In this document: in pieces, positions 41,754 to 57,729 of the stretch
Layout: the number at the start of each line of letters is the position of its first letter
Position numbering within the stretch: position 1 is the stretch's first letter
NCBI GenBank assembly: GCA_041661265.1
Contig: JBAZUT010000002.1
Location: forward strand, 12,316-76,315
Source of the DNA: Minisyncoccota bacterium
Lineage (GTDB): Bacteria; Patescibacteriota; Minisyncoccia; JAHIHE01; JAGLIN01
Direction of reading: 5' to 3'
DNA: 64,000 nt
Translations under genes and position numbers: made by a program
Notes under the pieces: model-generated
What the model was told of the DNA's origin: nothing
What the model saw: only the letters and a program-made list of their open reading frames with translations
Database searches by the model: none

Positions 41754-41788
41754 ATAAAAAAATCCCGCTGAATTTTTCAGCAGGAATT
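41754..41788 (-). terminator. Rho-independent terminator ending the paralog-array transcription unit
   Basis: Minus strand aattCCTGCTGAAaaaTTCAGCGGGattttttt lies ~25 bp after the last array gene. Confidence 0.6.
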
Positions 41789-41809: not shown

Positions 41810-42685
41810 CTAGCCGGATATCCACGTCATTCGAGGCCTTCGCGCGCCCTGTTCGTTTATTTTCCCATTATCTGACCCTCCGTTTTGAGTCAAAAATATT
41901 TGTCTTCCGCCTTTTTGTTTGCCTATTCCATATCCGTAGTGCGCCGGTTCAAAGAGTTCACTCTCCAATCTTCCGGATATTGTCAGACCGATAAAGAGCC
42001 TTCCGTCGCTCCCGATATATTGAGCGATCCCACACCCCTCAGGAGCAATAATGTTCATGCCTTTTGGCCCGGCCTTATCGCCCGTCGTCATTATCGTACA
42101 GCCTGCTTCCAGAAGCAGATCTTCAAAGCTTTTTGCTTCCTCTTTGCCCGACTCGTCACCGGCTGCGTCATTGTTCAATGCAGTTTCTTTACCACTGAGA
42201 CAGATTTCTCTTCCATTCATGAATATCCGGGTCTTTTCTTTGTCCGATCCATGGATCTCATTTTCATTTGAACCGGTTTCACCTTCGTCGTTTTCGCATT
42301 CTGTGCCCTTCTTTGTCCCCTTTTCTATCTCTTCCATTTTCCTTTCAGCCTTCTCAAGACTTGGTTTTTCTTGCCTTGAAAGCAGAACCTCCAAAACAGG
42401 CCACATGATCGAATCGATCTTGGGATATCCGTCAAGCTTGATGCTCCGGTCATTGTCCTCGCATCTTCCTGTGGCAAAGAGATATATCACCTTTCCCAGT
42501 TCATGCAATCCCTCTTCGAGGCTTGTTGCTGTTTCTCTGGATCCGAGATCGATCTCTTCAGTCAAAATATCCTGCTTCTGGAATATATAGTATTTTCCCT
42601 CTTCGGCTGCTTTTCCATACATCAAGAAAAGCCTCTCAAACGACTTTAGTAGCTCCTCGTCTTTCTCTTTTCCGATCTTTATCAT
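41810..42685 (-). CDS. Paralog-array member 10 (291 aa), type-B N-domain. C-terminus truncated or degenerate and lacks the family C-terminal NWYL(R/K)V domain
   Basis: The N-terminal 110 aa and leader are identical at DNA level to member 6 (45998..47272). It has an EGC(T) middle module. The sequence ends abruptly with GARRPRMTWISG. Confidence 0.7.
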   Translation of the reverse strand: MIKIGKEKDEELLKSFERLFLMYGKAAEEGKYYIFQKQDILTEEIDLGSRETATSLEEGLHELGKVIYLFATGRCEDNDRSIKLDGYPKIDSIMWPVLEVLLSRQEKPSLEKAERKMEEIEKGTKKGTECENDEGETGSNENEIHGSDKEKTRIFMNGREICLSGKETALNNDAAGDESGKEEAKSFEDLLLEAGCTIMTTGDKAGPKGMNIIAPEGCGIAQYIGSDGRLFIGLTISGRLESELFEPAHYGYGIGKQKGGRQIFLTQNGGSDNGKINEQGARRPRMTWISG

Positions 42686-42845
42686 ATCTTCGCTTCCTCC
42701 TTTTTCTTTGTGAGCATGATCAATACATTGATTTCAAGGTGCTTTCCTTTGAAGTCCCTCTCTGCCGTGCTGTTTATCTTAAACAGTATGGCGGAAAGAG
42801 AGGCAATGCCGGCTATTGTCGTTCAATAAGCGGGATTGCCGATGT
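42686..42845 (-). promoter_or_regulatory. Conserved array leader (copy 9): GGCAAT-loop-ATTGCC hairpin, CCTCTCTTTCCGCC...GGCAGAGAGGG hairpin, AAAGGAGGA RBS
   Basis: ~165-bp element repeated 9 times, immediately 5' of array genes. Confidence 0.55.
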
Positions 42846-43835
42846 TTAACTGATTACTAAGAACCAGCATTTTGACTTATCGCACACAGATACTATTCGT
42901 TTATCTTTTAGCTTTTCTTTCAGTTCACCTATGCCCTCTCCGCAAATATGTGATCCTTCCGGTGAGTACACCGTTTCTTTGTCATATTCATCTATAAACC
43001 CATTTTTCATAAGCGTTTCGCCACTTGAACAAAGCATATTCACAAGAGATGCTTCTGCATAATATTTCCAGCTGCAATGCTCGGAATCTATAGTTGCCAA
43101 TCCTTTGTTCAACCAAACAGACACCTCATCCAGATATTTTCCGGCATCTCTTCCGGCTATTTTTTTTCCTGTTTCAATATTAGACAAGATAACCGCATGG
43201 CCATAAACTACTTGGACCACTTTATATCCGAATTCTTTTAATGGAAATCGGGCATATGGCTTATCAGGGCTTCCTATGTGTATCTCGTCCCCGCCCTCCT
43301 TCGCCTTTGAGAATATATTTGTTCCTTCCGGAGCAAGAACGATCATGGATCCCGCTTCTATTCTCTTATTGGCGTCCTCTTCTCCTTCTTCCACTATATG
43401 CACAGTGCAGCCTTCGTCCAGCAGCAAGTCCTTCAAACTTTTTGCCTGTTTTATATTCTTGTCTGCGCCATCATGGACTTCTGTTATGCTCTTCTCAATT
43501 TCTTCAATGCTCGGAGCGTTTCCCTTCGAAAGCATTATCTGAAGTATCGGCCACATCATCGAATCGATCTTGGGATATCCGTCAAGCTTGATGCTCGGGT
43601 CGTTGTATTCCCAGATGCCGGTTGCGGCATAATAGATCACTCTTGCGAGTTCTCTCAGGCCTTCTTCCTCGCTTGATAGCGTTTCTCTTCCTTCAAGAGA
43701 TATGCCTTCCGCCACGATATCTTGGGGCAGGATCTTGTAATAGTTGCCTGCCTTGGCTCCTTTTTTGTACAGTTCAAGAAGCTCCCTCAGCGCTGCAAAA
43801 TAACCCTTATCTGTCTTTTCTTCGATCTTTATCAT
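42846..43835 (-). CDS. Paralog-array member 9 (329 aa), type-A N-domain (MIKIEEKTDKGYFAALRELLELYKKG...SIKLDGYPKIDSMMWP), EGC middle module, family C-terminal domain
   Basis: The N-domain is nearly identical to members 2, 4 and 5. The C-terminus reads ...GELKEKLKDKRIVSVCDKSKCWFLVIS. Confidence 0.75.
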   Translation of the reverse strand: MIKIEEKTDKGYFAALRELLELYKKGAKAGNYYKILPQDIVAEGISLEGRETLSSEEEGLRELARVIYYAATGIWEYNDPSIKLDGYPKIDSMMWPILQIMLSKGNAPSIEEIEKSITEVHDGADKNIKQAKSLKDLLLDEGCTVHIVEEGEEDANKRIEAGSMIVLAPEGTNIFSKAKEGGDEIHIGSPDKPYARFPLKEFGYKVVQVVYGHAVILSNIETGKKIAGRDAGKYLDEVSVWLNKGLATIDSEHCSWKYYAEASLVNMLCSSGETLMKNGFIDEYDKETVYSPEGSHICGEGIGELKEKLKDKRIVSVCDKSKCWFLVIS

Positions 43836-44003
43836 ATCTTCGCTTCCTCCTTTTTCCTTGTAAGCATGATCAATACATTGATTTCAAGGTGCTTTCCTTT
43901 GAAGTCCCTCTCTGCCATGCTGTTTATCTTAAACAGTATGGCGGAAAGAGAGGCAATCGGTCATCGTTTTTTTTCGATGGAATAATTGCCAAACATTTTA
44001 TTC
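43836..44003 (-). promoter_or_regulatory. Conserved array leader (copy 8); loop variant ggcaatcggtcatcgttttttttcgatggaataattgcc
   Basis: Identical to the leader at 52156..52323. Confidence 0.55.
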
Positions 44004-44861
44004 TTATTCGTAAACTTCTTTCAGGTACCACCTATTGGCGACTTTATCTTCTATAGATTCAATATCTCTATTGATGTTCTCCAACATAAATTTAAGCCTC
44101 TCTAATCCATGATTTTCTTTCGCTTTCTTATAGTTGAATTCTATTTTATCCAAACTCACTTTATGGATAAATCCCGCCTCGTCGCTTCCATGGTATATTG
44201 GAGTATTCATGTTAATCAGACATGTCGTCGGATCGAACAACCAGGTCCACTCACGAGAAAATATATAAGGCTCGCTTCCTTTTCGCGGCATTTTACTATT
44301 TCGATATTCGGTATTTATCCATTCAATTATTTCATTTATAAACCTTGCTCCATTTCTTATTTTTCTCCTTTCTTTTATTATTTCCGTCTCTACCTTTTCA
44401 ATTGTCGGCTTTTCTTCATTTGAAAGTAAGATTTTTAGCATTGGCCAGGAAATTGATTTTATCGGGATATAGCCATCTAGTTTAATACTGGGACAATTAT
44501 GTTCCCAATATCCGGTAATTTCAAAATATATCAGCTTTCCTAAGTTTTTTAATCCCTCCTCCACACTCTCTGCCCTATTTCTGCGCCGATAATTCGCAAT
44601 GGTCGAAATGAAATCTTCCGGTTTTCTTCTAAAATTGCTATGAAAAGGATCATCCGGCGAAAAAAGATACGCGGATTCCGGATCCCAATCGGCGCCATCA
44701 TATTTAGTTTTTTCTGCAAGATTAATCTTTTTCGTAAAAATATCTTCCCGCAAAAACAAAGGATATATCCCTTTTTCAGTTCCTTCACTAAACACTCTAA
44801 ATAGACTCTTCAATGCGACATGAATTCGCTCGTCATCTTTGTTTTCAATTTTCTTCACCAC
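44004..44861 (-). CDS. Paralog-array member 8 (285 aa), most divergent N-domain (with an inserted segment), different body
   Basis: Retains SIKLDGYIPIKSISWPMLKILLS and the tail NRWYLKEVYE. Confidence 0.65.
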   Translation of the reverse strand: MVKKIENKDDERIHVALKSLFRVFSEGTEKGIYPLFLREDIFTKKINLAEKTKYDGADWDPESAYLFSPDDPFHSNFRRKPEDFISTIANYRRRNRAESVEEGLKNLGKLIYFEITGYWEHNCPSIKLDGYIPIKSISWPMLKILLSNEEKPTIEKVETEIIKERRKIRNGARFINEIIEWINTEYRNSKMPRKGSEPYIFSREWTWLFDPTTCLINMNTPIYHGSDEAGFIHKVSLDKIEFNYKKAKENHGLERLKFMLENINRDIESIEDKVANRWYLKEVYE

Positions 44862-45016
44862 TGACTCCTCCTTCTTTTCAGATAAATATTCGCTATTTTG
44901 ATTTTAAGGTACTTTCCTATGAGTCCCTCGCTGTCATACTGTTCAGTCAAACAGTATGACGGAAAGAGAGGCAATTCCGTAAGTCTACTTTGCAACAAAC
45001 GGAATTGCCGATTTTT
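44862..45016 (-). promoter_or_regulatory. Conserved array leader (copy 7); perfect hairpin ggcaattccgt...acggaattgcc
   Basis: Seen in the sequence. Confidence 0.55.
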
Positions 45017-45823
45017 TTAGCACACTTTCAGATACCAAGACCCTGTATTATCCGTTATGGATATGGCCTTTTTGCCACTTAATTCGCTCTTCAGCTTTTC
45101 AAGGCCCATGATAAAACTTTTTGTATCGGTATATATCCAGAACCTGTTCCAGTCTTTCCCTATCTCCGCCACATCGCTTATGTCTATGAGTCCGTGCATT
45201 TGAAGAAAACCGATTCCGACTGAATTCCCCGGAAGCATCTTGAAAAGAGTATGATCTTCTTCCATGGACATCCAAACATATTTGCCCGACCCGAGTGACA
45301 CCGATTCTTCATAATGCTGCACAAGCCCTATAGCCGCCTGCAGAAGACTGTCGGCACCTGTCATGAAACAGCCTTTCTCGATCAGTAGATCCCATATGCT
45401 CTTTGTCTGCGTTCCGGTTATCTTCTCTACCGATACTTTTATGGGTGTACTTGTCACGCCATCCGCATCCTTGATCTTTTTTTCGATCTCTTTGATATCA
45501 GGCGGCTTGTCCTTCGAAAGCATCATCTCCAGAACAGGCCACATCATCGAATCGATCTTGGGATATCCGTCGAGCTTGATGCTCGGGTCATTGTATTCCC
45601 AGATGCCGGTTGCGGCATAATAGATCACTCTTGCGAGTTCTCTCAGGCCTTCTTCCTCGCTTGATAGCGTTTCTCTTCCTTCAAAAGATATGCCTTCCGC
45701 CATGATATCTTGGGGCAGGATCTTGTAATACATGCCTTCCTTGGCTCCTTTTTTGTACAGTTCAAGAAGCTCCCTCAGCGCTGCAAAATAACCCTTATCT
45801 GTCTTTTCTTCGATCTTTATCAT
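45017..45823 (-). CDS. Paralog-array member 7 (268 aa), type-A N-domain, body shared with member 1, C-terminal ...GKKAISITDNTGSWYLKVC
   Basis: Family N- and C-domains present. Confidence 0.75.
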   Translation of the reverse strand: MIKIEEKTDKGYFAALRELLELYKKGAKEGMYYKILPQDIMAEGISFEGRETLSSEEEGLRELARVIYYAATGIWEYNDPSIKLDGYPKIDSMMWPVLEMMLSKDKPPDIKEIEKKIKDADGVTSTPIKVSVEKITGTQTKSIWDLLIEKGCFMTGADSLLQAAIGLVQHYEESVSLGSGKYVWMSMEEDHTLFKMLPGNSVGIGFLQMHGLIDISDVAEIGKDWNRFWIYTDTKSFIMGLEKLKSELSGKKAISITDNTGSWYLKVC

Positions 45824-45997
45824 ATCTTCACTTCCTCCTTTTTCCTTGTAAGCATGATCAATACATTGATTTCAAGGTGCTTTCCTTTGAAGTCCCTCGC
45901 TGTCATGCTGTTTATCTTAAACAGCATGGCGGAAAGAGAGGCAATTCCGGCTATTGTCTTTCAATAAGCGGGATTGCCAAATATTATTTTCACTGGA
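45824..45997 (-). promoter_or_regulatory. Conserved array leader (copy 6)
   Basis: Seen in the sequence. Confidence 0.55.
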
Positions 45998-47272
45998 TCA
46001 GATTATCCGTACAGCCGTGCGAACGCCATATTTTTCATCAGTGTTTGACATCAGATGACTCACATGCATGTACACAAGACGGCTATTTTCGTGAAATCCC
46101 AAAGAATAAACGGAATCAGGCGAGTTTTTTCCGACAATACCCAAAATATATGGAGTATGCATACCGCCGATATGGGCATCTATCAATTCATTCGTGTTTT
46201 CCAGATGGATAATAGCAAGAGTGATCTGGTCCTCTGCGGATATTCCATCTTCTCCCTGATATGCGTCTGCCAAAAGAGATCCTAAATATCTCTTTGGACT
46301 CATCCCGCACTCAAGCTGCTTTCGTCCGCCAATAGTCTGACCGCCGCCCTTTGCCGGAAGGCACGCAAGATCCTCAACCAGAAGAACATTGAATGCGGAG
46401 CCGCTTGCCAATAACTCTTTTTTGGTTTTATTGGAACCGCCTCTTTGGCGATAGCTCACATTGCCATTCATATCCGCTTCTCTTTCAGTGCTCCAGATAA
46501 GAATCGGCTTTTCTGAATCAATATATAGTTTCCGGTTCTGTTCATCGTGATTTTGTTTGGCTCCGAACAATATTTCATTTGCGTCATGCCGCAGGATCAA
46601 TCTCCCGAATATCTCGACAAGATCGTTGAATTTCATGCCAAATGGAACGATCAGCAATTTGTTGAATCCCTGATCCCACTTAAACTTGAAAAAATCCCCG
46701 TTTTCTTTTATCATATCCGCTATTTCTTCAAATTCCGGGAAAGAGTATTCCTTTCCATCTATGCCCTTTATGCCCGATTCTCCGTTTGAGAGTATTCTGA
46801 TCACTCCCGTCTTTCGGAATATTTCCTTTTGGTTCTCATATTGCCGTTTCAGCTCTTCATAGCCGAACTCCGTAGTCTTTACAGACGTTTCTTCAGTTAT
46901 TCTCTTTTGCGTCAGCTCATTTAATATTTTTTCCGCTGCTTTAAGATTTGGAGATTCTCTCCTTGAAAGCAACAGTTCGAGTATCGGCCACATGATCGAA
47001 TCGATCTTGGGATATCCGTCAAGCTTGATGCTCCGGTCATTGTCCTCGCATCTTCCTGTGGCAAAGAGATATATCACCTTTCCCAGTTCATGCAATCCCT
47101 CTTCGAGGCTTGTTGCTGTTTCTCTGGATCCGAGATCGATCTCTTCAGTCAAAATATCCTGCTTCTGGAATATATAGTATTTTCCCTCTTCGGCTGCTTT
47201 TCCATACATCAAGAAAAGCCTCTCAAACGACTTTAGTAGCTCCTCGTCTTTCTCTTTTCCGATCTTTATCAT
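45998..47272 (-). CDS. Paralog-array member 6 (424 aa), type-B N-domain fused to a distinct ~300-aa C-terminal region, possibly enzymatic (Gly-rich LPAKGGGQTIGG, HIGGMHTPY)
   Basis: The N-domain and leader are identical to member 10. The rest is unrelated to the other members, and the family C-terminal tail is absent. Confidence 0.7.
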   Translation of the reverse strand: MIKIGKEKDEELLKSFERLFLMYGKAAEEGKYYIFQKQDILTEEIDLGSRETATSLEEGLHELGKVIYLFATGRCEDNDRSIKLDGYPKIDSIMWPILELLLSRRESPNLKAAEKILNELTQKRITEETSVKTTEFGYEELKRQYENQKEIFRKTGVIRILSNGESGIKGIDGKEYSFPEFEEIADMIKENGDFFKFKWDQGFNKLLIVPFGMKFNDLVEIFGRLILRHDANEILFGAKQNHDEQNRKLYIDSEKPILIWSTEREADMNGNVSYRQRGGSNKTKKELLASGSAFNVLLVEDLACLPAKGGGQTIGGRKQLECGMSPKRYLGSLLADAYQGEDGISAEDQITLAIIHLENTNELIDAHIGGMHTPYILGIVGKNSPDSVYSLGFHENSRLVYMHVSHLMSNTDEKYGVRTAVRII

Positions 47273-47436
47273 ATCTTCGCTTCCTCCTTTTTCTTTGTGA
47301 GCATGATCAATACATTGATTTCAAGGTGCTTTCCTTTGAAGTCCCTCTCTGCCGTGCTGTTTATCTTAAACAGTATGGCGGAAAGAGAGGCAATGCCGGC
47401 TGCATTATTTGCAGAACAAATTGCCTGATATGTAAT
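47273..47436 (-). promoter_or_regulatory. Conserved array leader (copy 5)
   Basis: Identical over its length to the leader at 42686..42845 except for the GGCAAT-hairpin loop. Confidence 0.55.
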
Positions 47437-48819
47437 TTACAGCACTCTTAGGAACCAGCCATTTTTTGATCCGTCATATACGGATTCTACGCGCCTGCCT
47501 TTCAGCTTTTCCCTTAATTCTCCTATTTTCTTTCCGGAAAAAGCGCTGACGCTCCATGTGAATAGCTCCGTCCATGGGACATGCACCCTGCTCTTCTTGT
47601 CCACCAATCCGGCCTCTTTGAACGGGTTGATATTCTTGACATCAAGATAAACCAAACCTTTTTTAGGATGATATTTCCAATGCAGCTGTTTAATATCTTC
47701 TGTCCAGATTATAATCTCCAGATCATCCAGAAATTTTCCAGCCTCTGTTCCTATCTGCATGTCGCGAGGCGCAATTCGTTTCAGATAGCATTTCTTCGAG
47801 CTTCCTGATCCGTTTGCACTATATCCATATTTTTTCGGCTCATATAGCTCTTCTCCGATCAGCTCTCCATATTTTTCCAGCGCTATCAATTGCCTGCCAT
47901 CACTGCCGACGTAATGAGCTATTCTGCATGCATTCGGTGCAATAACGATCAGATCGTCACCGTCCATTTCGATCTCACATCCCTCGCCAATAAGAAGATC
48001 TTCCAGCGATACTGCTTTTTTTTCTTCGACCTGTTTTTCGGTTACATCATTGGAATTGCCTGAATCTTTCTCGGCCTCGATTATCTTTGTCTCAATGTCC
48101 GGTTCAATTTTCCGCAAACGGATTTCATTTCCGCTTTCTCCGCTTATCTTATATCCATGCTGCATTAATGGATAGATGGCATATGTTTCATTGTCTGGTC
48201 TTGTAAATAAGATCTCATGCCCCGCATCTTTATACTGTCCGGACACTTTATTACCCACGGGTGGAACAACGATAACATCTGCCGCCCTTATATCCCGATG
48301 CGGATCTTCCTCTCCCGCTTTAACATTCGATAAAGTACAACCCTCTTGTAACAACAGGCATATAAGCCTTTCCGATTGTTCTTTGCCGGTTTCCTTAACA
48401 TTCAACGTCTCTGTGTCCTTCTTCTGTTCATCTTTGGTTTTGTTTTGACCGCCTTCTATTTGCCTGATCTCTGTCTCAACCATCTCAATACTTGGCATCG
48501 CTCCGCCTCTGGAAAGCATAATTTCGAGCACCGGCCAGAAGAACACTTTGATCGGCGGATATCCATCAAGCTTGATGCTCGGGTCGTTGTATTCCCAATT
48601 TCCGGTCATGGCATAATAGATAGCCTTTCCAAGTTCTCTCAGGCCTTCTTCCTCGCTTGATAGCGTTTCTCTTCCTTCAAGAGATATGCTTTCTGCCACG
48701 ATATCTTGGGGCAGGATCCTGTAATAGTTGCCTTCCTTGGCTCCTTTTTTGTACAGTTCAAGAAGCTCCCTCAGCGCTGCAAAATAACCCTTATCTGTCT
48801 TTTCATCGATCTTTATCAT
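47437..48819 (-). CDS. Paralog-array member 5 (460 aa), type-A N-domain, two tandem EGC middle modules, family C-terminal domain
   Basis: The middle module is duplicated (LLQEGCTLSNV... and LLIGEGCEIEMD...). The C-terminus reads ...GKKIGELREKLKGRRVESVYDGSKNGWFLRVL. Confidence 0.75.
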   Translation of the reverse strand: MIKIDEKTDKGYFAALRELLELYKKGAKEGNYYRILPQDIVAESISLEGRETLSSEEEGLRELGKAIYYAMTGNWEYNDPSIKLDGYPPIKVFFWPVLEIMLSRGGAMPSIEMVETEIRQIEGGQNKTKDEQKKDTETLNVKETGKEQSERLICLLLQEGCTLSNVKAGEEDPHRDIRAADVIVVPPVGNKVSGQYKDAGHEILFTRPDNETYAIYPLMQHGYKISGESGNEIRLRKIEPDIETKIIEAEKDSGNSNDVTEKQVEEKKAVSLEDLLIGEGCEIEMDGDDLIVIAPNACRIAHYVGSDGRQLIALEKYGELIGEELYEPKKYGYSANGSGSSKKCYLKRIAPRDMQIGTEAGKFLDDLEIIIWTEDIKQLHWKYHPKKGLVYLDVKNINPFKEAGLVDKKSRVHVPWTELFTWSVSAFSGKKIGELREKLKGRRVESVYDGSKNGWFLRVL

Positions 48820-48983
48820 ATCTTCACTTCCTCCTTTTTCTTTGTGAGCATGATCAATACATTGATTTCAAGGTGCTTTCCTTTGAAGCCCCTCTCTGCC
48901 ATGCTGTTTATCTTAAACAGTATGGCGGAAAGAGAGGCAATTCCGGCTATTGTCTTTCAATAAGCGGGATTGCCAAAATGTTT
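48820..48983 (-). promoter_or_regulatory. Conserved array leader (copy 4)
   Basis: Seen in the sequence. Confidence 0.55.
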
Positions 48984-49823
48984 TTATTCGCAAATCCTTA
49001 AATACCAGTTTTCCTCATTTTCATCATATACCGACACTATGCGCCTGCCATTCAATATTTTTTTCAAATCGTATATGTCACAGGATTTATCGGCGTTCGC
49101 CGGAAATGATATTTTTTCCGTCACATCGATAAACCCGCCATCCCTGAAAATATTCGCATCTCCTCTTGCATGCATGTCCACCAGACAACTTTTGACATCA
49201 TATGACCATTTCCAGTCAACTTCGTCCTTGAATCCTGTACGCTCTCGCATCCATGCAAAAACCTTGTCAAGAAATTCCCCGGCATCTCTTGTTTCTATAC
49301 TTGCATAGTGAAAGCACACAGGATATATCATCTTTCTGGCTTCCATCACCGTTTCTTCAAAAACACTTTCATCCAAACCGCCGAACATCAGGACAAGCTC
49401 TTTCAACAGCTGTTCTTTGTTCTTTTTTCCGCCTTCTGCCGTCTTTTCGCCCCTACCTTTTTTTTCCCCGGCCTCTTTTATTTTCTCTTCTATTCTGTCG
49501 ATGTCCGGAGCCTCTTGCCTGGACAGCATCATTTCCAGAACAGGCCACATCATCGAATCGATCTTGGGATATCCGTCGAGCTTGATGCTCCGGTCGTTGT
49601 CTTCGCAAATTCCGGTGACTGCGCGATAGGCGATCTTTCCCAATTCATGCAATCCGTCTTCAATGCTTGCTGCAGTTTGCCTGGATCCGGGATCGATCCT
49701 CTTCGCCACAAAATCTTCCGGTAAGAATTTATAATATTTCCCGTCTTTGGCTCCGTTTTTATACAACTCAAACAAATTCTTGAGCGATCTGAATATTTCA
49801 TCATCCGTCTTCTTTTCGGTCAT
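48984..49823 (-). CDS. Paralog-array member 4 (279 aa), divergent N-domain, family C-terminal domain. Translationally coupled to member 3 (18-bp gap, own RBS, no leader copy)
   Basis: MTEKKTDDEIFRSLKNLFELYKNG...SIKLDGYPKIDSMMWPVLEMMLS. The C-terminus reads ...GRRIVSVYDENEENWYLRICE. Confidence 0.7.
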   Translation of the reverse strand: MTEKKTDDEIFRSLKNLFELYKNGAKDGKYYKFLPEDFVAKRIDPGSRQTAASIEDGLHELGKIAYRAVTGICEDNDRSIKLDGYPKIDSMMWPVLEMMLSRQEAPDIDRIEEKIKEAGEKKGRGEKTAEGGKKNKEQLLKELVLMFGGLDESVFEETVMEARKMIYPVCFHYASIETRDAGEFLDKVFAWMRERTGFKDEVDWKWSYDVKSCLVDMHARGDANIFRDGGFIDVTEKISFPANADKSCDIYDLKKILNGRRIVSVYDENEENWYLRICE

Positions 49824-49841
49824 TATCCTGCCTCCTCAAAT

Positions 49842-50921
49842 TCATTCCTCGCATACTCGCAAATACCAATTGCCCCTTCTGTCCAGCACGGACAGAACTT
49901 TTTTTCCTTTCAGCTCCTCTTTTAACCCGTTCATACCATAGGCGAAGCCTTCTATCGAATAGTATGCCCTGCCTGTTACCGTCGTGATATTCTTGAATTC
50001 AACCGCTTCTTTTTCATCTATGAAACCGCCATTTTCGAATAATGCAACGCCTGCATGATCATTCGGTATCATTTTTATGAGATTCTTTTCTCTGTTGGAA
50101 GCCCATAATATCATGCCCGTCACATTATCAAATTTCAGTTCTCTCGCATATGCCTTCGCAAAATTTATCACTTCATCGATGAATTTTTCCGCATCTCTTT
50201 GGGCTGATCGGTCATGTCCGGCCTCAATCCTTCTCAGATGGACTTCGTTTCCGTGATATTTGTTTCTTATTTTGTAGCCGAATTCTTTTAACAGGTATTC
50301 ATAAAATATCCTATCCGGCCTTTCTATGCGGATCCTTACTCCATCATCTTTGCATAAAGCAAGTATTTTGCATCCTTCCGGCGCGATCACGATCAAGTCG
50401 CCCGCCTTGATGTCCTTGCTTGGATTCTTGCTTTCTTGCCTTAATGTCAGCACGGTACAGCCTATGTTGATCAATATACCCTTCAGGTCTTTTGTTTGCG
50501 CTATATTCGACCACTTTCCGGATATCTCAGCTTCGGATCCCCTTGCCCCCGTGTCAGCTTGAGCCGACCCGAATATTTCTTCGATCCTTCCGATGCTTGG
50601 CGCTTCTGCCTTTGAAAGCAGAACCTCAAGCGCGGGCCAAAAGAATATCTTGATAGGCGGATAGCCGTCTATCTTGATGCTTGGATCGTTGTGCTCCCAG
50701 GTACCGGTCGCATAAAAATAGATCGCTTTCCCAAGCTCTCTAAGCCCCTCTTCGGCGCTTGCTGCGGTTTTTCTGGATGCGAAAGAAATATTCTCTGCCA
50801 GAACATCATCCTGCAGAAATAAGTAATATCTTCCCTCCCCAGCTTCTCTCGCATACAGTTCAAAAAGTTTCTTGAACGATTTGAACAGTTCTTCGTCCGT
50901 TTTCTTTCCGATCTTCATCAT
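49842..50921 (-). CDS. Paralog-array member 3 (359 aa), divergent N-domain, EGC-type middle module, family C-terminal domain
   Basis: MMKIGKKTDEELFKSFKKLFELY...SIKIDGYPPIKIFFWPALEVLLS. The C-terminus reads ...GKKVLSVLDRRGNWYLRVCEE. Confidence 0.75.
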   Translation of the reverse strand: MMKIGKKTDEELFKSFKKLFELYAREAGEGRYYLFLQDDVLAENISFASRKTAASAEEGLRELGKAIYFYATGTWEHNDPSIKIDGYPPIKIFFWPALEVLLSKAEAPSIGRIEEIFGSAQADTGARGSEAEISGKWSNIAQTKDLKGILINIGCTVLTLRQESKNPSKDIKAGDLIVIAPEGCKILALCKDDGVRIRIERPDRIFYEYLLKEFGYKIRNKYHGNEVHLRRIEAGHDRSAQRDAEKFIDEVINFAKAYARELKFDNVTGMILWASNREKNLIKMIPNDHAGVALFENGGFIDEKEAVEFKNITTVTGRAYYSIEGFAYGMNGLKEELKGKKVLSVLDRRGNWYLRVCEE

Positions 50922-51081
50922 CTCTGTTTCCTCCTTCTTCTTCCATGAACAAAACTGATACTTTTGATTTCAAGGTGCTTTCCAAAAAGTCCCTCGCTGT
51001 CATGCTGTTTGGTTGAACAGTATGACGGAAAGAGAGGCAATACCGCTTGTTTTTTTCACAAAAGGGATTGCCGATATTTAT
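50922..51081 (-). promoter_or_regulatory. Conserved array leader (copy 3)
   Basis: Seen in the sequence. Confidence 0.55.
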
Positions 51082-52155
51082 TCAGCAAACTTTCAAAAAC
51101 CATCCATTATTCGATCCATCATATACAGATAATATGCGCTTGCCCCAAAGCTTTTCTTCCAATTCGCTGACGCTTTTTCCCGTATCTGAAAATAAGCCCC
51201 AGGAAACTATATTCAGCAAAGAAACTTTCACTCTTTCTTTTTTGTCAATGAATCCGGCTTCTGTCAGCCCCTTGGTGTCCTTAAACTCGATATATACCAA
51301 AGCTTTTTTGGCATTATATGTCCAATACAGGTCTCCTTTGAATCCCCGTTGCCCCCACAGAAATAATTCCAGATCATGCAGGAACTCTTTTGCGTCCCAA
51401 GTTTGAAGTTTGTGCAAACGGATCTCCTTTTCGTTGATCTCTTCTGATATTTCGTACTCGTCTCCTCCAACATAATATTCAACATTTGTCCCATTTGATC
51501 TAAAGATAATTATTCCAATCCCATGGATCGAAACCAATTTGAATATTTTTCCTCCGCTAGGAGCCAGCACGCTCAGGTCTTCCTCCGCATTGCTTCTTCT
51601 CGGATGATCTTTTCCTTTTATAGCATTTATCCGGCACCCTTCATTGGTCAAAAAATATGTCAAGGCATTATTCGGCACTTTTCTGGTTTTATTTTCAAGC
51701 ACCGGCTCGACTATTTTTTCCTCTTTGCCCGTTTCTCCGTCTATAACCTTCTCTGTTTCAACGGGAGCTATTTCGTCTTCTTTTGCGCCCTTTTCAATTT
51801 CTTTTATCTTTGCCTCGATATCATCAACGCCCTGTATTTTTGTTTTCGAAAAAATGATCTCCAGAACAGGCCACATCATCGAATCGATCTTGGGATATCC
51901 GTCGAGCTTGATGCTCCGGTCGTTGTATTCCCAGATGCCGGTTGCGGCATAATAGATCACTCTTGCGAGTTCTCTCAGGCCTTCTTCCTCGCTTGATAGC
52001 GTTTCTCTTCCTTCAAGAGATATGCCTTCCGCCACGATATCTTGGGGCAGGATCTTGTAATAGTTGCCTGCCTTGGCTCCTTTTTTGTACAGTTCAAGAA
52101 GCTCCCTCAGCGCTGCAAAATAACCCTTATCTGTCTTTTCTTCGATCTTTATCAT
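51082..52155 (-). CDS. Paralog-array member 2 (357 aa), type-A N-domain, EGC middle module, family C-terminal domain
   Basis: N-domain nearly identical to member 9. The C-terminus reads ...GKRILSVYDGSNNGWFLKVC. Confidence 0.75.
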   Translation of the reverse strand: MIKIEEKTDKGYFAALRELLELYKKGAKAGNYYKILPQDIVAEGISLEGRETLSSEEEGLRELARVIYYAATGIWEYNDRSIKLDGYPKIDSMMWPVLEIIFSKTKIQGVDDIEAKIKEIEKGAKEDEIAPVETEKVIDGETGKEEKIVEPVLENKTRKVPNNALTYFLTNEGCRINAIKGKDHPRRSNAEEDLSVLAPSGGKIFKLVSIHGIGIIIFRSNGTNVEYYVGGDEYEISEEINEKEIRLHKLQTWDAKEFLHDLELFLWGQRGFKGDLYWTYNAKKALVYIEFKDTKGLTEAGFIDKKERVKVSLLNIVSWGLFSDTGKSVSELEEKLWGKRILSVYDGSNNGWFLKVC

Positions 52156-52323
52156 ATCTTCGCTTCCTCCTTTTTCCTTGTAAGCATGATCAATACATTG
52201 ATTTCAAGGTGCTTTCCTTTGAAGTCCCTCTCTGCCATGCTGTTTATCTTAAACAGTATGGCGGAAAGAGAGGCAATCGGTCATCGTTTTTTTTCGATGG
52301 AATAATTGCCATTACATTGTTAT
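52156..52323 (-). promoter_or_regulatory. Conserved array leader (copy 2)
   Basis: Identical to 43836..44003. Confidence 0.55.
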
Positions 52324-53181
52324 TCACACCACTTTCAAATACCAGTTACCTTTTTTGTCCAATATGGACATGATCTTCTTTCCACTCAATTCGGTCTTCA
52401 GCTTTTCAAGCCCGTATATAAAGCTTTTTTTATCCGAATAAATGATGATCCTATCCCATTTTTCAATGATCTCCGGAATCTGGCTTTTCTCGATCAAGAA
52501 GCCTGTCTTTTCAAGCATCTCGATCAATCTGGCATTATCCGGGATCATTTTATAAAGAGTCCGGTCTTTCTGTGCCGATACCCATACCCACTTATAGATC
52601 CCGATTCCCAATGCTTCCTCGTGGGCATTTGCGTTTTTTATAACCAAGCCGAGTATCGCTCCGGAATCCATAACGGTGCAGCCCTGTACGAGCGACCGGT
52701 CGAATGAAATATCCGATCGGATGTCATTTATTTTTATTACGGGTATGCTTTCGACTTTCTTCTTGTCTTCTTCGATCTCGTTGATCTTCCTGTTGATCTC
52801 CTTGATCTTCCTGCCGATCTTTTCAATTTCAACTTTTTTGTCCTTCGAAAGCATCATCTCCAGAACCGGCCAGGTCATTGATTCGATCGGCGGATAGCCG
52901 TCGATCTTGATGCTCGGGTCGTTATATTCCCAAAACCCGGTAGCCGCGAAATAAACGGCTTTTCCCAATTGACTCAGTCCATCTTCAAGGCTCATCGCAG
53001 TTTCTCTGGATCCGGCATCAACCTTTTCCGCCAAAATATCATTTGGTAAAAAGATGTAATATTTCCCATTCTTGGCTCCTTTAACATATTTCTCAAAGAG
53101 ATTGCTCAGTCCCTTAAACAGATTGGCATCTTTTTTCTTTTCGATCTTCAACATCGCATATTCCTCCTCTGTCTTTTCCAA
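52324..53181 (-). CDS. Paralog-array member 1 (285 aa), divergent N-domain, body related to member 7, family C-terminal tail
   Basis: ...SIKIDGYPPIESMTWPVLEMMLS. The C-terminus reads ...GKKIMSILDKKGNWYLKVV. Confidence 0.75.
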   Translation of the reverse strand: MEKTEEEYAMLKIEKKKDANLFKGLSNLFEKYVKGAKNGKYYIFLPNDILAEKVDAGSRETAMSLEDGLSQLGKAVYFAATGFWEYNDPSIKIDGYPPIESMTWPVLEMMLSKDKKVEIEKIGRKIKEINRKINEIEEDKKKVESIPVIKINDIRSDISFDRSLVQGCTVMDSGAILGLVIKNANAHEEALGIGIYKWVWVSAQKDRTLYKMIPDNARLIEMLEKTGFLIEKSQIPEIIEKWDRIIIYSDKKSFIYGLEKLKTELSGKKIMSILDKKGNWYLKVV

Positions 53182-53354
53182 TAGTCTGAACTAGTATCTT
53201 CATTTCAAGGTGCTTTCCAAAAGTCCCTCGCTGTCATACTGTTCGCTCTGAACGGTCTGACGGAAAGAGAGGCAATGCCGGACGCCGCTTTCATGGCTGA
53301 CCGGAATTGCCGAAATGTTCTATATATTTTCTTTTTAAGCTCAGAATGAGCATT
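53182..53354 (-). promoter_or_regulatory. Conserved array leader (copy 1), between the AAA+ ATPase gene and the first array gene
   Basis: Contains the ggcaatgccggacgccgctttcatggctgaccggaattgcc hairpin variant. Confidence 0.55.
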
Positions 53355-55172
53355 TTATGTTTTCACTCCCGAGCCTGCACCATTCAACTCGGCTTCTGCA
53401 TCATTCAATATCTTCTCCCAATTCTCCGGCCGAAGATGCTTTGAGCTTCCTCTGATCGCAAGCACGATCTGCTTGTTTATTTCCTGCGGATCAAGGCTTC
53501 TTTCCCATTCCTCAATGGCCTGGTAAAGATTCGCTTCTCTTACGGAAGCGCCTCCTTCTCTGGCGGATATCCTATCCGCTTCAAGGACCATCCATTCCAC
53601 ATCCGCTCCGGTAACATATTTCTTTTCCACCAGCAGACGGGCAAATTTCGAAAAGTCCCTGATCTCGGTCGGGATCCCGTATCGTGCGAACATCACGCTG
53701 AATATGTTCGGATATTCGTTCTCGATCGGCAAACCGAACGGAATTATTTCATCGGATCTGCCTTTTCTCTTATAGGCCGGATCGACAAGATCGGGCCGGT
53801 TGGTGATCCTCACCCAGATAACCTTTCCTCTTATGTCAGGCCTGGAACAGAATTCGAATTTCTTCTGCCTCAGGCGGTTGGAAACTCCGGAATCGCCGTT
53901 ATAAGCGTCGCGGCCTCCTTCCGACTGGTCGGCTTCGTCCTCGACGACGATCACCGGCGCAAGGTCTTCCAGGCAGGCAAGTATCATCTGCATATACCTT
54001 TCGGACTCTCCGACATACATATTGCGTGGATTTTGTATCTCAACGAAATTGAATCCGCATTCAAATGCCCAGCACTCGAATAGGAAGGTCTTTCCGGTTC
54101 CCGGAGGACCCGCCGCAAGTATGCCCATCGGAACACGCCTCATCATCCCTGCCAGAATATTGTCATTCACTTCGCGAAGATACCTCTTGACGTTTTCTTT
54201 TCCGCCGAAATAATTGAATCCCCACTTGGGAATCTTAATTTTTACGCGGTCACCGAATTCTTTTTCAAGGATCGTCTTTTTTTCCTCCTTTATCAGGTCC
54301 AGGCTCAAAGGGACCTTGCTGTAGGAAGCTTGCTCATAAATGCCTTTGATCTGTTTTACGGACAAGCCCGACGTGCAGATGCCCAGCATTTGCGCGTTTA
54401 CATTGCTTTCCACATTTATCCTTTTTTGCCCGATAAGTTCCTGCCAAAGCTTGACTCTTTCCTCCATATTGGGTTTTGGGATCCGAATGGCGGGGATATC
54501 TGTCTGAGTGGACCTCAATGGTTCGGCCAGATCACCTATATTCGGCGTGATCAATATCATAGTGTTCCCTGTCGCGCCAACATCCCTGTCCTGAGCCAAT
54601 CGCTCCAAAGTTTCCACGACCAGACGGTCCTGAATGCTCTGATGAGCCGATGCGGCCGGAACCAGGTTGTGGGCGAAAGATATTATCACGACTTTTTTCA
54701 GGATATTTCCTGAAATATCAAGTTTTTCCGCCGTCTTCTTTTCGATCCTTGAAACCAGAAGATTGTCCCTCATGATCCTGGCAAGCAGCGGCAAAACGAT
54801 CTCCGGCGTCTTTCCTCCGATCAATTCGTCGATGGAAAGCTCATTCGCGGATCTTTGCTGCACTCCGATCGCCTTATTTTGCGCTGCGGTTGTCCGGGGC
54901 GCCATGCTTTGATCTTCGAGCAGATATTGCTGCCTGAATATTTTCTCCATATCTTCATTGGGAAATCGTATCCCTGTCGAAATGGAATAGAGAATAACCA
55001 TCCTCTGCCTGAAATATTCCTCTGCAAGCTCCTGATCCAGGGTGACATAGTCGCCCTTCATGTTCTTCTGAAAATCTCCTGTATTCCCCCATATAACAAG
55101 AAGGTTTGTTCCGAGAGCTAAATTTCTCATCAGCTCATCTTGCCACACCATAACATCATCTCCTTTTTGCAT
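53355..55172 (-). CDS. Classical-clade AAA+ ATPase (605 aa) with ~330-aa N-terminal domain of unknown function
   Basis: Walker A GPPGTGKT, Walker B VIVVEDEADQ, and a second region of homology ITNRPDLVDPAYKRKGRSD carrying Arg fingers. Confidence 0.85.
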   Translation of the reverse strand: MQKGDDVMVWQDELMRNLALGTNLLVIWGNTGDFQKNMKGDYVTLDQELAEEYFRQRMVILYSISTGIRFPNEDMEKIFRQQYLLEDQSMAPRTTAAQNKAIGVQQRSANELSIDELIGGKTPEIVLPLLARIMRDNLLVSRIEKKTAEKLDISGNILKKVVIISFAHNLVPAASAHQSIQDRLVVETLERLAQDRDVGATGNTMILITPNIGDLAEPLRSTQTDIPAIRIPKPNMEERVKLWQELIGQKRINVESNVNAQMLGICTSGLSVKQIKGIYEQASYSKVPLSLDLIKEEKKTILEKEFGDRVKIKIPKWGFNYFGGKENVKRYLREVNDNILAGMMRRVPMGILAAGPPGTGKTFLFECWAFECGFNFVEIQNPRNMYVGESERYMQMILACLEDLAPVIVVEDEADQSEGGRDAYNGDSGVSNRLRQKKFEFCSRPDIRGKVIWVRITNRPDLVDPAYKRKGRSDEIIPFGLPIENEYPNIFSVMFARYGIPTEIRDFSKFARLLVEKKYVTGADVEWMVLEADRISAREGGASVREANLYQAIEEWERSLDPQEINKQIVLAIRGSSKHLRPENWEKILNDAEAELNGAGSGVKT

Positions 55173-55190
55173 TTTTTTTCTTTCCTTCCA

Positions 55191-55322
55191 TTATCCGCAC
55201 ATCCCTTCATAGTTCACCTTCACTTCTATCCCGACTGCCTGCAAGATATCCCGCAGAAAATGAGAATCGTCATGAGAGCTGGCATTGATCTCTACGCGTC
55301 CTTCAAAAACACTGACGCTCAT
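55191..55322 (-). CDS. Tiny protein (43 aa), FEG...LQAVGIEV motif, paralog of the adjacent 69-aa gene (DUF2997-like?)
   Basis: The internal ATG at 55322 lies right after the stop of the upstream 69-aa gene. The ORF-track 85-aa version overlaps that gene in another frame, so its N-terminus is rejected. Confidence 0.35.
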   Translation of the reverse strand: MSVSVFEGRVEINASSHDDSHFLRDILQAVGIEVKVNYEGMCG

Positions 55323-55326
55323 AAAT

Positions 55327-55536
55327 TCACGCGCGGATCTTTTCTTTTCCGACGACAGGTTCTTTTTCTTTTTCTTTTCTTCTTCCGTTCTGGACATCTG
55401 TTTCAACTCCCATTTTTTCAAGCAATGACCTGATTTTAAGCTCTTCATAGTCGCACGTTTTGTTCGGAAATCCTTCGAAATCCATCTCGATCTTCCCGTC
55501 TTTTAGCCTGATAGCAACCTTTCTCATTTCATTCAC
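55327..55536 (-). CDS. Small protein (69 aa), DUF2997-like pattern (IRLKDGKIEMDFEGFPNKTCDYEELKIRSLLEKMGV)
   Basis: Overlaps the upstream 170-aa gene by 8 nt, suggesting translational coupling. The assignment to DUF2997 is from memory of that family's consensus. Confidence 0.45.
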   Translation of the reverse strand: MNEMRKVAIRLKDGKIEMDFEGFPNKTCDYEELKIRSLLEKMGVETDVQNGRRKEKEKEPVVGKEKIRA

Positions 55537-56041
55537 CAGCTTTCATCCCGACGACATTGAAGCTTTGTCTGCCGTCGCCTATCGAATATTTCTCAGTCGG
55601 TTCGATCCTGTATCCGAGAATTTCAAGAGCGGCTTTCGCGGCTTCGAGAAGATATGCATCCGTGAACATCTTCTTGAGGCGCATTATCTCTTCTTTCCAT
55701 TCGCTCCTGTATTCGTCAGCAGCGAACCGGACCACTCCGTTCTTCATTGTTATTCCCAAACCATTTGGAAGCTTTGAAGTTTTCAGCGCGCCGATGATCT
55801 TCTGACCGCCAAAGGACTTGGTTTCATTGCGGCCAAAGTCGCAAATATGGTCCGTGATCTCGACTCCCTGGCTTTCCAAGGTTTTGAAAGCGCCCTGTAT
55901 GCATTCCTCGATGACATCATCAAGCTCCAGATCTTCTATGATCTTTGCGAATTTGGGGTCTTTCAGCCGAAGCTCGTTCAGCATTTCATTCATGTTCTCC
56001 GTTGCGCTCAATTGAGCGTTCATCCATACGATCTTACTCAT
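55529..56041 (-). CDS. Hypothetical protein (170 aa) coupled to the DUF2997-like gene (possibly DUF1257-like partner)
   Basis: Intact ORF. Its C-terminal AAKAALEILGYRIEP weakly resembles DUF1257/Ycf35. Weak inference. Confidence 0.45.
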   Translation of the reverse strand: MSKIVWMNAQLSATENMNEMLNELRLKDPKFAKIIEDLELDDVIEECIQGAFKTLESQGVEITDHICDFGRNETKSFGGQKIIGALKTSKLPNGLGITMKNGVVRFAADEYRSEWKEEIMRLKKMFTDAYLLEAAKAALEILGYRIEPTEKYSIGDGRQSFNVVGMKAGE

Positions 56042-56361
56042 AAATCCTTCCTCCTGTAAACGTTCCTTGTTTGCCGGTTTTTAAAGTGCAATTTCGATTG
56101 CGCGATGTTTTGAATATCGCCTGATATGCCAATGGTGCTTGGCATGCGAAAAATTCCAGACTAAACCGGCTGTTTTTCGCTTTGTTAAAGTTAAACTTTA
56201 ACTAAACAAACTAGCATTATTTGAATAAATTGTCAATAATCGGCAGGACTGGCAATAAATGCTCGCCTTTTTTAAAATATCACAAGGCGATATCAGGGAA
56301 AACGAAAGATCGATAATGCCTGAAAACCGCTATTTTAATAAAAAAATCCCCTATTTCAGTT

Positions 56362-57729
56362 TTACTGCAATAGGGGCCTAAGTTCAACCTTATCTTCGGC
56401 TTTTTCGCCATAAGATGCGATCGCTATTTTAATCTTTAATTCACTTTCTAGAAAGTGTATATATTCAGCTTTTTTCACCGTTTGGTAGATCGGTCTGCAT
56501 AACTTGAGAAGTTCTGCGAGTTTGCCTTGGTGTTCGGAAGAGGTCTTTGCGGGAAAATTAATATTTTTTATCATTATTTTTCCACTTGTTTCTTCGAACT
56601 CGAAGTATTCCTGCAGCGATGCATCTTTTTTTCCGCAGTATTCATAGGCCTCGCACACCCTGATCTTTTCAAAATCAAGACGGTCAAGGTTTGTAAGTGC
56701 GACACAATTAATTTTTCCTGCTACCCTCAGAGCATACCTTGACGCCACCAGATCAAACCATCCGATGCGAAATTCACCCTGCCATTCATTTGTGATGTTA
56801 TGCGTGTCCGGTATCTTTCCGGTCAGCCATTTATTGTATGTTACAAACGGACCTGCGCCATGCCGGGTGCTATACGCCCGGATAACTCCGATCTTGACGA
56901 CCTTCCCTTGAAGTCCCATGGACCCGATCAGCTCTTCTGCATTGGCGAAAGTAGTGCACGAATGCGTTATGTGAGGATAGAATCCCCTTTTTTCATCAAG
57001 GAGAACTCCCTGCGCCCCTTCGAAGACGACACTTCCGGAAATTTCAGCTCCTTTTTTCTTGCCGATTTTCAGCGCTTTAGAAAAACTGGAGTAATACGAG
57101 GCTAGTCTTCCGACGTATTTTTCATCTTTCAGATTCCCCAGAAGCTCCTGCAGTTTTGAATTTTCCGGCTGCTCGGAAGCAATTTGCTCCGCAATATCTG
57201 TCTTCATGCGCCATAGAAAATCCAGCTTTGTCTGAAGTGTTTCCGGATCCGAAAGGTCCTTCGCCCGAAGAGCCATTTCTCCATAATTTCTTCCGTCCTT
57301 CACCGCCTCGCCGACTCCGAATCCGCAGCTTCCGTGTTTCTTATTGCCTCTTGAAATTTCCAGCATCTGATTGATAATGCCGTGAAATGGTGTCACTATG
57401 AGACAATCGGGATCGATCGAAACTAGCCACAAAGGACGTTTTACGCCTTTTTTCGCAAGTGAATTGGCTTCGTGTCCGAGCCGTACCGGATCAACCATCA
57501 CTTTATCGAAGAGATATGTACTTGCTCCTGAAAAAGTTCCTGATCCGTACTGCGCGAAACAATGAAGATATCCGTCGGAATTCACCACGTAATGCGCCGC
57601 TTGCGGCCCGCCATTATAACGGACAATTGATTTTATGTCATATCGTCTCGCAAGATAATCCACAATAGAACCCTTTCCTTCATCGCCGAAGCCCAAGCCC
57701 GCTACAATGAAGATCCTTTCTTCTTTCAT
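56362..57729 (-). CDS. Adenylosuccinate synthetase (PurA)-family enzyme, divergent
   Basis: GDEGKGS P-loop, GGPQAAH in place of GGHNAGH, and FEGAQG are present. Several other conserved PurA segments are strongly diverged. Confidence 0.7.
   Translation of the reverse strand: MKEERIFIVAGLGFGDEGKGSIVDYLARRYDIKSIVRYNGGPQAAHYVVNSDGYLHCFAQYGSGTFSGASTYLFDKVMVDPVRLGHEANSLAKKGVKRPLWLVSIDPDCLIVTPFHGIINQMLEISRGNKKHGSCGFGVGEAVKDGRNYGEMALRAKDLSDPETLQTKLDFLWRMKTDIAEQIASEQPENSKLQELLGNLKDEKYVGRLASYYSSFSKALKIGKKKGAEISGSVVFEGAQGVLLDEKRGFYPHITHSCTTFANAEELIGSMGLQGKVVKIGVIRAYSTRHGAGPFVTYNKWLTGKIPDTHNITNEWQGEFRIGWFDLVASRYALRVAGKINCVALTNLDRLDFEKIRVCEAYEYCGKKDASLQEYFEFEETSGKIMIKNINFPAKTSSEHQGKLAELLKLCRPIYQTVKKAEYIHFLESELKIKIAIASYGEKAEDKVELRPLLQ

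Follow-up and report, generated by a model that had tools for sequence, protein, structure and literature searches.

A two-hairpin spacer repeated between the paralogous genes of a Paceibacterota array: a covarying RNA structure that may punctuate one long transcript

The expression of genes within an operon can be reshaped by 3' protective hairpins, as in malE-malF and puf, and by 5' hairpins after endonuclease cleavage, as in papBA (Dar and Sorek, PMC5927463). Here we describe a composite spacer, built around two consecutive hairpins, that recurs between ten paralogous genes in a 64,000-nucleotide stretch of DNA (the window, whose positions are used throughout) from contig JBAZUT010000002.1 of a Minisyncoccota bacterium. 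Its genome belongs to the Paceibacterota, in the candidate phyla radiation (CPR). The reading we favour, while stopping short of calling it probable, is that this element acts in the RNA of the coding strand as intercistronic punctuation of one long transcript. To our knowledge, the gene-expression signals of the CPR are almost unstudied, the organisms being uncultured.

The closest described systems are the hairpins of the malE-malF REP in Escherichia coli, of puf in Rhodobacter capsulatus and of papBA, which are likewise stable, free of a U-run and intercistronic, there in a long transcript and here in a predicted one (PMC5927463). There, as here, a hairpin follows closely on a stop codon and another stands at the head of the message after it, and structure is kept more than stem sequence. 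A punctuation mechanism has precedent. Unlike those cases, the 3'-type and 5'-type hairpins are here fused without a linker, repeated nine times in one array and held in step by gene conversion, and they are accompanied by an invariant 15-nt sequence and an extra conserved box. Stabilization, in the present case, is putative.

The array occupies 41810-53181 of the minus strand, and its ten genes are called m1 to m10, counting from the 3' end; it adjoins the gene of a 605-residue AAA ATPase (53355-55172, minus strand) on its downstream side, and public copies of the array proteins carry locus tags WC788_01760 to WC788_01800. Nine of the ten junctions upstream of array genes carry the spacer, which is about 155 bases long. 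On the coding strand its order is: upstream stop codon, 5-25 nt, first hairpin (H1), second hairpin (H2), 5-8 nt, box, about 30 AU-rich nt, a strong GGAGG Shine-Dalgarno (SD) sequence as ribosome-binding site, and start codon, with 148-157 nt from GGCAAT to the start codon. H1 (37-41 nt) has a fixed GGCAAT/ATTGCC base. Its interior, described in the initial annotation of this stretch as a loop of 15-27 nt, is in fact 25-29 nt long and, while differing between copies, always forms a 4-7-bp stem of its own with an A-rich loop. Within arrays, H1 is followed by an interrupted pyrimidine tract, TCTCTTTC (5 T in 8), and the invariant TCTCTTTCC after internal H1 doubles as the 5' arm of H2. H2, a 17-20-bp hairpin, abuts H1 with no linker at all. 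In its outer helix, where U·G pairs take part, UCUCUU.C faces G.GAGGGA; the inner helix has 10-13 bp and a loop of 3-5 nt. The outer-stem register first proposed was two bases off: CCUCUCU/AGAGAGG leaves a U·C mismatch in 12 of 17 copies and was replaced by the register from RNAalifold. The 15-base box has the consensus AAAG[CT]ACCTT[GA]AAAT. A pairing of CUUUCC with GGAAAG of the box was rejected, as diverged copies lose the GG while keeping CUUUCC, with no compensation. The copies in the window are as follows.

42686-42840, minus strand: leader before m1 (41810-42685); H1 42802-42840, H2 42755-42801, box 42731-42745, SD 42696-42701
43836-43990, minus strand: leader before m2 (42846-43835), identical to the m9 leader; H1 43952-43990, H2 43905-43951, box 43881-43895, SD 43846-43851
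44862-45009, minus strand: leader before m3 (44004-44861, GTG start), a diverged copy; H1 44970-45009, H2 44924-44969, box 44901-44915 (AAAGTACCTTAAAAT), SD 44867-44872
45824-45978, minus strand: leader before m4 (45017-45823); H1 45940-45978, H2 45893-45939, box 45869-45883, SD 45834-45839
47273-47425, minus strand: leader before m5 (45998-47272); H1 47389-47425, H2 47342-47388, box 47318-47332, SD 47283-47288
48820-48974, minus strand: leader before m6 (47437-48819); H1 48936-48974, H2 48889-48935, box 48865-48879, SD 48830-48835
48984-49823, minus strand: m7, after m8 at the coupled junction; no leader
50922-51072, minus strand: leader before m8 (49842-50921), a diverged copy; H1 51036-51072, H2 50990-51035, box 50967-50981, SD 50930-50935
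52156-52310, minus strand: leader before m9 (51082-52155); H1 52272-52310, H2 52225-52271, box 52201-52215, SD 52166-52171
53155-53311, minus strand: leader between the AAA-ATPase gene (53355-55172) and m10 (52324-53154), a diverged copy; H1 53271-53311, H2 53224-53270, box 53202-53216, SD 53163-53169

The H1 of the m3 leader has a perfect 11-bp base. The start of m10 is the ATG at 53154, the longest open reading frame (ORF) beginning instead at a TTG at 53181. The only junction without the element is that of m8 to m7 (49823/49842), where m7 is translationally coupled, as the initial annotation had noticed. Its count of nine copies on the coding strand is likewise borne out. There are exactly nine, all on the minus strand within 42686-53311, and none elsewhere in the 64 kb: the core 14-mer CCTCTCTTTCCGCC, with at most two mismatches, has nine matches in the array against 0.66 expected, the pattern GGCAAT-N15-35-ATTGCC nine against 0.13, and a covariance model of H2 exactly nine in the window, at 65-74 bits, with no others; the nine copies can also be aligned along the entire leader. 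Assembly did not create the repeats, since two independent metagenome contigs (L003 and L006) contain stretches of the array without a single difference.

The covariation of H2 was assessed on 17 different copies, drawn from the window and from six foreign contigs. RNAalifold folded them into a single extended hairpin, predicting the same H2 independently. In this set 94.1% of the cells are paired and 10 of the 17 pairs have changed on both sides. The covariation score is 0.319, compared to 0.141 in shuffles, none of 500 of which reaches it, and to at most 0.125 in controls with slid partners. In L019, L020 and L022 the stem sequences are entirely different. Stems of diverged relatives have been rewritten yet pair, as where GTCATCCTTA/TAAGGCTGAC and ATCTTTCTATTT/AAATAGAGAGAT stand in place of GCCATACTGTTTA/TAAACAGCATGGC. 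H2 is a conserved structured RNA motif whose pairs have been kept by compensatory change in independent lineages. All H1 variants pair as well, and the view that both hairpins are real structures with compensatory change is supported; a lack of covariation, which the initial annotation would have taken as refuting the fold, is not what was seen.

No match to the element was found in Rfam at the gathering score, the only match with E<1 being a snoRNA-type model far below threshold. Neither a U-run terminator nor a terminator/antiterminator pair was seen within the leader, and comparison of the copies by sequence revealed no conserved upstream ORF or leader peptide. The suggestion of a riboswitch or attenuator finds no support in these results. 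It is a structured RNA of the intercistronic or untranslated-region (UTR) class, without a Rfam family.

The structure appears to belong to the RNA of the coding strand, a conclusion that we hold with moderate confidence. In the outer helix, taken in the RNAalifold register, 99.2% of the cells pair on the coding strand compared to 70.6% on the opposite one, a contrast due to two conserved U·G pairs and to purine-to-purine changes opposite U. The A-rich loops of the element also match those of the terminators of this genome. An RNA made from the antisense strand was considered and rejected as unsupported, the outer helix being specific to the coding strand. If only the window clade is considered, every copy of H2 has the better fold on the plus strand (summed energies of -308 compared to -245 kcal/mol), where 96% of its cells are paired against 87% on the coding strand; inner A·C mismatches of the coding strand would be G·U there. 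Once diverged copies are included, the count of independent wobble events is about 6 against 4, which does not discriminate between the strands.

H1 resembles an intrinsic terminator in several respects. All 16 variants fold, with z-scores of -1.5 to -7.3 and energies of -11 to -22 kcal/mol, through interior stems that are unrelated to one another; for 15 of them at most one of 200 shuffles folds equally well. The stem-loop comes soon after each upstream stop (5-25 nt) and, like that of intrinsic terminators, has an A-rich loop, a GC-containing base and homology to hairpins followed by a T-run. What internal H1 lacks is an uninterrupted U-run directly past the stem: canonical terminators in the window have T5-T7, unlike internal H1, which is followed by UCUCUUUC and at once by a second hairpin. 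It had been stated that neither hairpin is a classic terminator, there being no U-tract after either. The first part stands, in that no uninterrupted U-run is present; the second is too strong, given the five T in eight after H1. The array itself is closed by a canonical terminator that is H1-like and has kept its T-run:

41761-41787, minus strand: canonical intrinsic terminator, ATTCCTGCTGAAAAATTCAGCGGGATT (CAATTCC...GGGATT) followed by TTTTTAT

The same arrangement is found in relatives. In L021, a solitary gene of the family, located downstream of a ribosomal-protein gene that we read as rplL, is followed by the hairpin GGCAATTCTGCC...GGATTGC (of the form GGCAAT...GGATTGC) and then by the T-run TTTTTTATTT; in L020, the last gene is followed by a terminator-like hairpin with a T7 run. 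H1 is, on these comparisons, best described as the 3' hairpin of the upstream gene, homologous to the intrinsic terminator of the family, with the U-run swapped for the invariant UCUCUUUCC inside arrays. Because of this replacement, termination at internal H1 would be weak or absent. The L021 solitary gene, which has no H1 upstream, nevertheless retains, past a canonical TTGACA-17-TAATTT promoter, both the box and a relic of H2 (a model match with E = 0.05). H2 and box thus belong to the 5' UTR of the downstream gene. The spacer is therefore not the single leader that was first described: only H2, box and ribosome-binding site form the 5' leader, H1 being the 3' hairpin of the preceding gene. 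A promoter scan reported TTGGCA-16-GACAAT inside type-A H1 (48949-48976 and 45953-45980, minus strand), in two copies only and probably fortuitously.

Upstream of the array, the sequence reads as follows.

56205-56233, minus strand: promoter-like TTGACA-17-TAGTTT, upstream of a 170-residue gene, two small ORFs, the AAA ATPase and the array

A canonical terminator (56348-56376) lies just before this site, and from 56348 to 41787 the minus strand contains no canonical terminator, though this genome uses them freely. A sigma-70 scan reported no promoter-like site common to the leaders. The simplest reading would be a single operon of 14.5 kb, probably beginning at the promoter-like site, that takes in the 170-residue gene, both small ORFs, the ATPase gene and the whole array, with the spacer at nine places inside it.

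On this basis the punctuation reading may be put as follows. Transcription of the AAA-ATPase operon and of the ten array genes would mostly yield a single long RNA. At every spacer H1, a disarmed terminator, would mark and protect the 3' end of the upstream message, and H2, with the box, the AU-rich stretch and the SD after it, would open, head and protect the 5' leader of the next gene. Each junction could be either read through or cut; a cut would leave messages that begin with H2 and end with H1, and each paralogue would in this way acquire a stability and a translation rate of its own. For the cut, a comparison is offered by the RNase III sites of phage T7 early mRNA, which H2 resembles as a helix of about 20 bp with small internal bulges between cistrons of a polycistronic RNA; the two have no sequence relationship, and cleavage of H2 is hypothetical.

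Several points weigh against this reading. Co-transcription of the array, protection of RNA ends by the hairpins and cleavage are all steps that we infer. The inner stem of H2 is uninformative on strand, A·C departures being as many as G·U and the opposite strand pairing slightly better (94.7% compared to 90.6%), so that the strand call rests on the outer helix, in a register taken from the consensus. The -10-like hexamers that lie 16-18 nt past the TTGAAA of the box in L002, L020b and L022a make internal promoters possible. The punctuation account also leaves the role of the box outside. Finally, ATTGCCTCTCTTTCC is invariant across genomes whose proteins are 35-45% identical, a stronger constraint than a stabilizer hairpin needs; it suggests sequence-specific recognition, for which the punctuation model names no agent. 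There is a slim chance that the ATTGCC-UCUCUUUCC core between the covarying hairpins is the site of a dedicated factor, a nuclease or RNA-binding protein perhaps linked to the AAA ATPase, which would cut or gate the junctions, and that the box marks a small CPR-specific regulon extending beyond the array. If that were true, the dose of each cassette in the array could be set separately, or the cassettes could be expressed in alternation.

No other part of the element is kept as widely as the box, which without exception points in the sense direction, 50-95 nt ahead of the start codon, and occurs also without H1 or H2. In L023, it precedes a distant, membrane-type member of the family, right past the terminator of the AAA-ATPase gene of that contig. 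The initial annotation had called for a search for the motif outside the array; in the window this returned one further copy of the box and neither hairpin.

36598-36611, plus strand: tenth box, AAAGCACCTTAAAT, outside the array; no H1 or H2; 4 nt past the -10 of a canonical promoter, TTGACT-16-TAAAAT (from 36566)

This copy stands 75 nt before an unrelated 56-codon ORF (36673-36843, plus strand) that is followed by terminators, and the 36566-36843 unit and the array genes may have regulation in common. The box is a separate, more widely conserved signal. It may act at the level of DNA, as an operator or a special promoter element, or at that of RNA, and its reader could be a protein, a sigma factor or an RNA.

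These properties of the box bear on another possibility, which we consider unlikely but worth serious attention, namely that each array gene is a transcription unit of its own, H1, its U-tract weakened, being a leaky terminator, the box the -35 element (TTGAAA) of an internal promoter or an operator for a shared regulator, and H2 an insulator between neighbouring units. The box does contain TTGAAA, TTAAAA or TTGCAA, a plausible -10 follows at 16-17 nt in L002 (TAACAT), L022a (TATCAT) and L020b (TATGAA), and the box is the part most widely conserved, present even without H1 and H2. The L023 box lies 55 nt past a canonical terminator, implying a promoter nearby, and both there and at 36598 it begins 4 nt past a -10-like hexamer, the classic position of an operator. 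However, the six main copies of the window have TCACAA or TTACAA 18 nt past TTGAAA, without the essential A2 and T6, and the promoter scan reports nothing common to the leaders. In L019 and L023 the SD comes about 31 nt past the TT of the box, too close for the -35 of a message that includes it, and the canonical promoter of L021 sits 110 nt upstream of the box. Separate units would also leave the covariation of H2 unexplained. As for an operator, proposed in the initial annotation, the box is not palindromic, the leaders have no conserved palindrome, and ATCAATGTATTGAT occurs only in the six near-identical copies and in L001b.

A further interpretation strikes us as quite improbable as the main function. 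The pyrimidine tract CCUCUCUUUCC mimics an anti-SD and might pair either with GAGGGA of H2, leaving the SD free, or with GGAGG, hiding it, so that a translational riboregulator would set or switch the translation of each paralogue. Minimum-energy folds of the whole leader do pair the tract with the SD in W4, W8, W10, L001a, L001c and L020a, the SD is predicted to be free with a probability of 0.09-0.91 depending on the copy, and tract and SD are both invariant. That very invariance prevents covariation from testing the long-range pairing, the partners are some 110 nt apart, and the leader has no evident ligand-binding core and no Rfam match; an outer helix that is 99.2% paired, with compensatory changes, favours H2 as the usual partner of the tract. 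The alternative pairing may nonetheless leave room for a translational component.

It remains to ask how far the recurrence of the element reflects duplication. In the window it falls inside a larger repeated unit (families D1 and D2, 186 + 300 nt), which joins the leader to about 280-300 nt of N-terminal coding sequence, and six copies are mutually 84-100% identical. Identity is complete between m1 and m5 over -120 to +280 and between m2 and m9 over about -155 to +280. Leaders of the m1 and m2 types are 98% identical, compared to only about 55% for coding DNA from +20 to +220. Three H1 types combine freely with two N-terminal types, and conversion tracts begin at GGCAAT or at ATTGCC. At the orthologous junction of the close relative L001 (L001b), the leader differs from W9, while W9 equals W2, and gene conversion has therefore been recent; it keeps the leader-plus-N-terminal unit uniform within the window.

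Relatives were sought with a profile of the N-terminal domain in 1.84 billion representative proteins, which yielded 52 proteins whose contigs were compared. In L002, L018, L019, L020 and L022 the best N-terminal matches to m2 are only 31-41% identical, yet H1, the tract CCTCTCTTTCC, H2 and the box are kept. Between the window and its L001 orthologues, the background is about 87% identical, H2 and box 93-97% and the interior of H1 67%, meaning that H2 and box are constrained in sequence and H1 in shape only. The content of the array varies between relatives. Motif scans of 185,579 GTDB species genomes and of IMG/VR viral contigs found no real copies, only chance matches in coding DNA, and protein-pattern scans of genomes and viral contigs found nothing; among 241 million metagenome records, real copies occur only on contigs of this array family.

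That the element is functionless, a passenger in recent tandem duplications, is scarcely credible in view of these data. In favour of such a passenger, the element does sit in a longer repeat in the window, with six near-identical copies, and the motif is absent from the species genomes and viral contigs and confined, in metagenomes, to contigs of the array family. The idea is contradicted by the covariation and by conservation across genomes: the element persists in relatives with strongly diverged N-terminal domains, where the stems are rewritten with pairing retained, and is more conserved than the flanking coding DNA. Selection acts on the element, over and above duplication. The question raised in the initial annotation, whether the element is simply part of a longer duplicated unit, thus receives a double answer, since in the window it does belong to a unit reaching about 280 nt into the coding sequence, and conservation extends beyond recent duplicates to the diverged relatives.

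The mosaic has also to be set against the idea that the hairpins are DNA-level recombination signals, similar to integron attC sites or acting by template switching, that exchange whole cassettes. The leaders are mosaics in which H1, H2-box and N-terminal types are variously combined, with tracts that begin at GGCAAT or ATTGCC, W9 equals W2 and not its orthologue L001b, and array content varies. Like attC sites, the hairpins are imperfect palindromes, constant at the base and variable at the centre, that separate cassettes of one orientation. We nevertheless find this very unlikely. The attC core sites (RYYYAAC/GTTRRRY) are absent, the base being GGCAAT...ATTGCC with no R''/R' AAC/GTT cores, and the conserved U·G pairs and the wobble pattern point to RNA. 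The setting is not that of an integron either. No integrase was found among the ORFs scanned, nor any attI; the neighbours covered, which encode an AAA ATPase, a kinase and a PurA-like protein, included no recombinase, and the cassettes are paralogues with their own SD, not unrelated promoterless genes. Ordinary homologous gene conversion between repeats yields the same mosaic. The hot-spot proposed in the initial annotation survives in so far as the repeats are visibly crossover points of gene conversion; as a primary role it is unsupported.

The only recombinase-like gene among the ORFs scanned, 6302-7237 (minus strand), encodes a 311-residue protein with an IS200-like Y1 transposase domain (Y1_Tnp), a family that includes the transposases associated with repetitive extragenic palindromic (REP) elements. 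REP elements and the bacterial interspersed mosaic elements (BIMEs) that they form occur in many copies dispersed among intergenic regions, often with a gene for a REP-associated tyrosine transposase (RAYT, a Y1 transposase) flanked by copies. Unlike REP elements, the spacer is not dispersed and shows no link to the Y1 gene: all nine window copies are in the array, real public copies are on array-family contigs only, and no hairpins resembling H1 or H2 occur beside 6302-7237. Membership in the REP/BIME class was therefore rejected.

Overall, the first description of the element was essentially right, and riboswitch, operator and recombination site are unsupported as primary roles. The element is of interest in several ways. 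It is a structured RNA supported by covariation, absent from Rfam and of very narrow distribution. It illustrates how, while a gene family grows into an array, a terminator may be disarmed by the exchange of its U-run for an unvarying C/U tract and become joined to the leader that follows. The box could give access to a regulon, if there is one. In practice the gain is limited and lies in better annotation (a false N-terminal extension), in flagging the array as one long operon and in a motif to look for in metatranscriptomes. The false extension concerns protein P0003 of L001 (1163-2320), whose public gene call takes as its start an ATG within the 3' arm of H2 and reads on across the leader in the same frame, which adds 28 spurious residues ahead of the true start at L001 1247.

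The array proteins have in common an N-terminal domain of about 105 residues and a short C-terminal tail, ...WYLKV, with variable middles. Sequence searches in Pfam, NCBIfam and the PDB gave no match, and a confident AlphaFold model (pLDDT 87.5) had no significant match in a PDB fold comparison. The shared domain (42846-43835, minus strand, and paralogues) contains the motifs LG..Y...TG..E, DGYP and WP..E.LLS, resembling the C-lobe of protein kinases, and the model gave weak, non-significant matches to the kinases or pseudokinases GAK, PAN3 and LRRK2. In every relative with enough flanking DNA, an AAA ATPase lies immediately upstream of a gene with the same N-terminal domain; examples are 53355-56233 in the window (minus strand), L018 8001-9827 and L023 5476-7827. 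A distant class of these ATPase-linked relatives consists of proteins of 450-535 residues with hydrophobic stretches that resemble membrane segments.

A gene with a Pkinase domain lies near the array (59418-60557). Between it and the ATPase operon are an adenylosuccinate-synthetase-like (PurA-like) gene (56362-57729) and a gene for a 519-residue protein (57854-59413), both on the minus strand, the latter protein having no Pfam or NCBIfam match. Further away, 7940-15301 (minus strand) encodes a giant protein of 2453 residues with SpvB, TcdB middle/N, FG-GAP, RHS-repeat and Laminin_G_3 domains, similar to toxins of the Tc/RHS type. At the other end of the window, a bidirectional terminator hairpin, AAGCGCCG[G/A]CAAACGGCACTT with T-runs on both sides, occurs in two near-identical copies some 770 nt apart (62965-62991 and 63735-63755).

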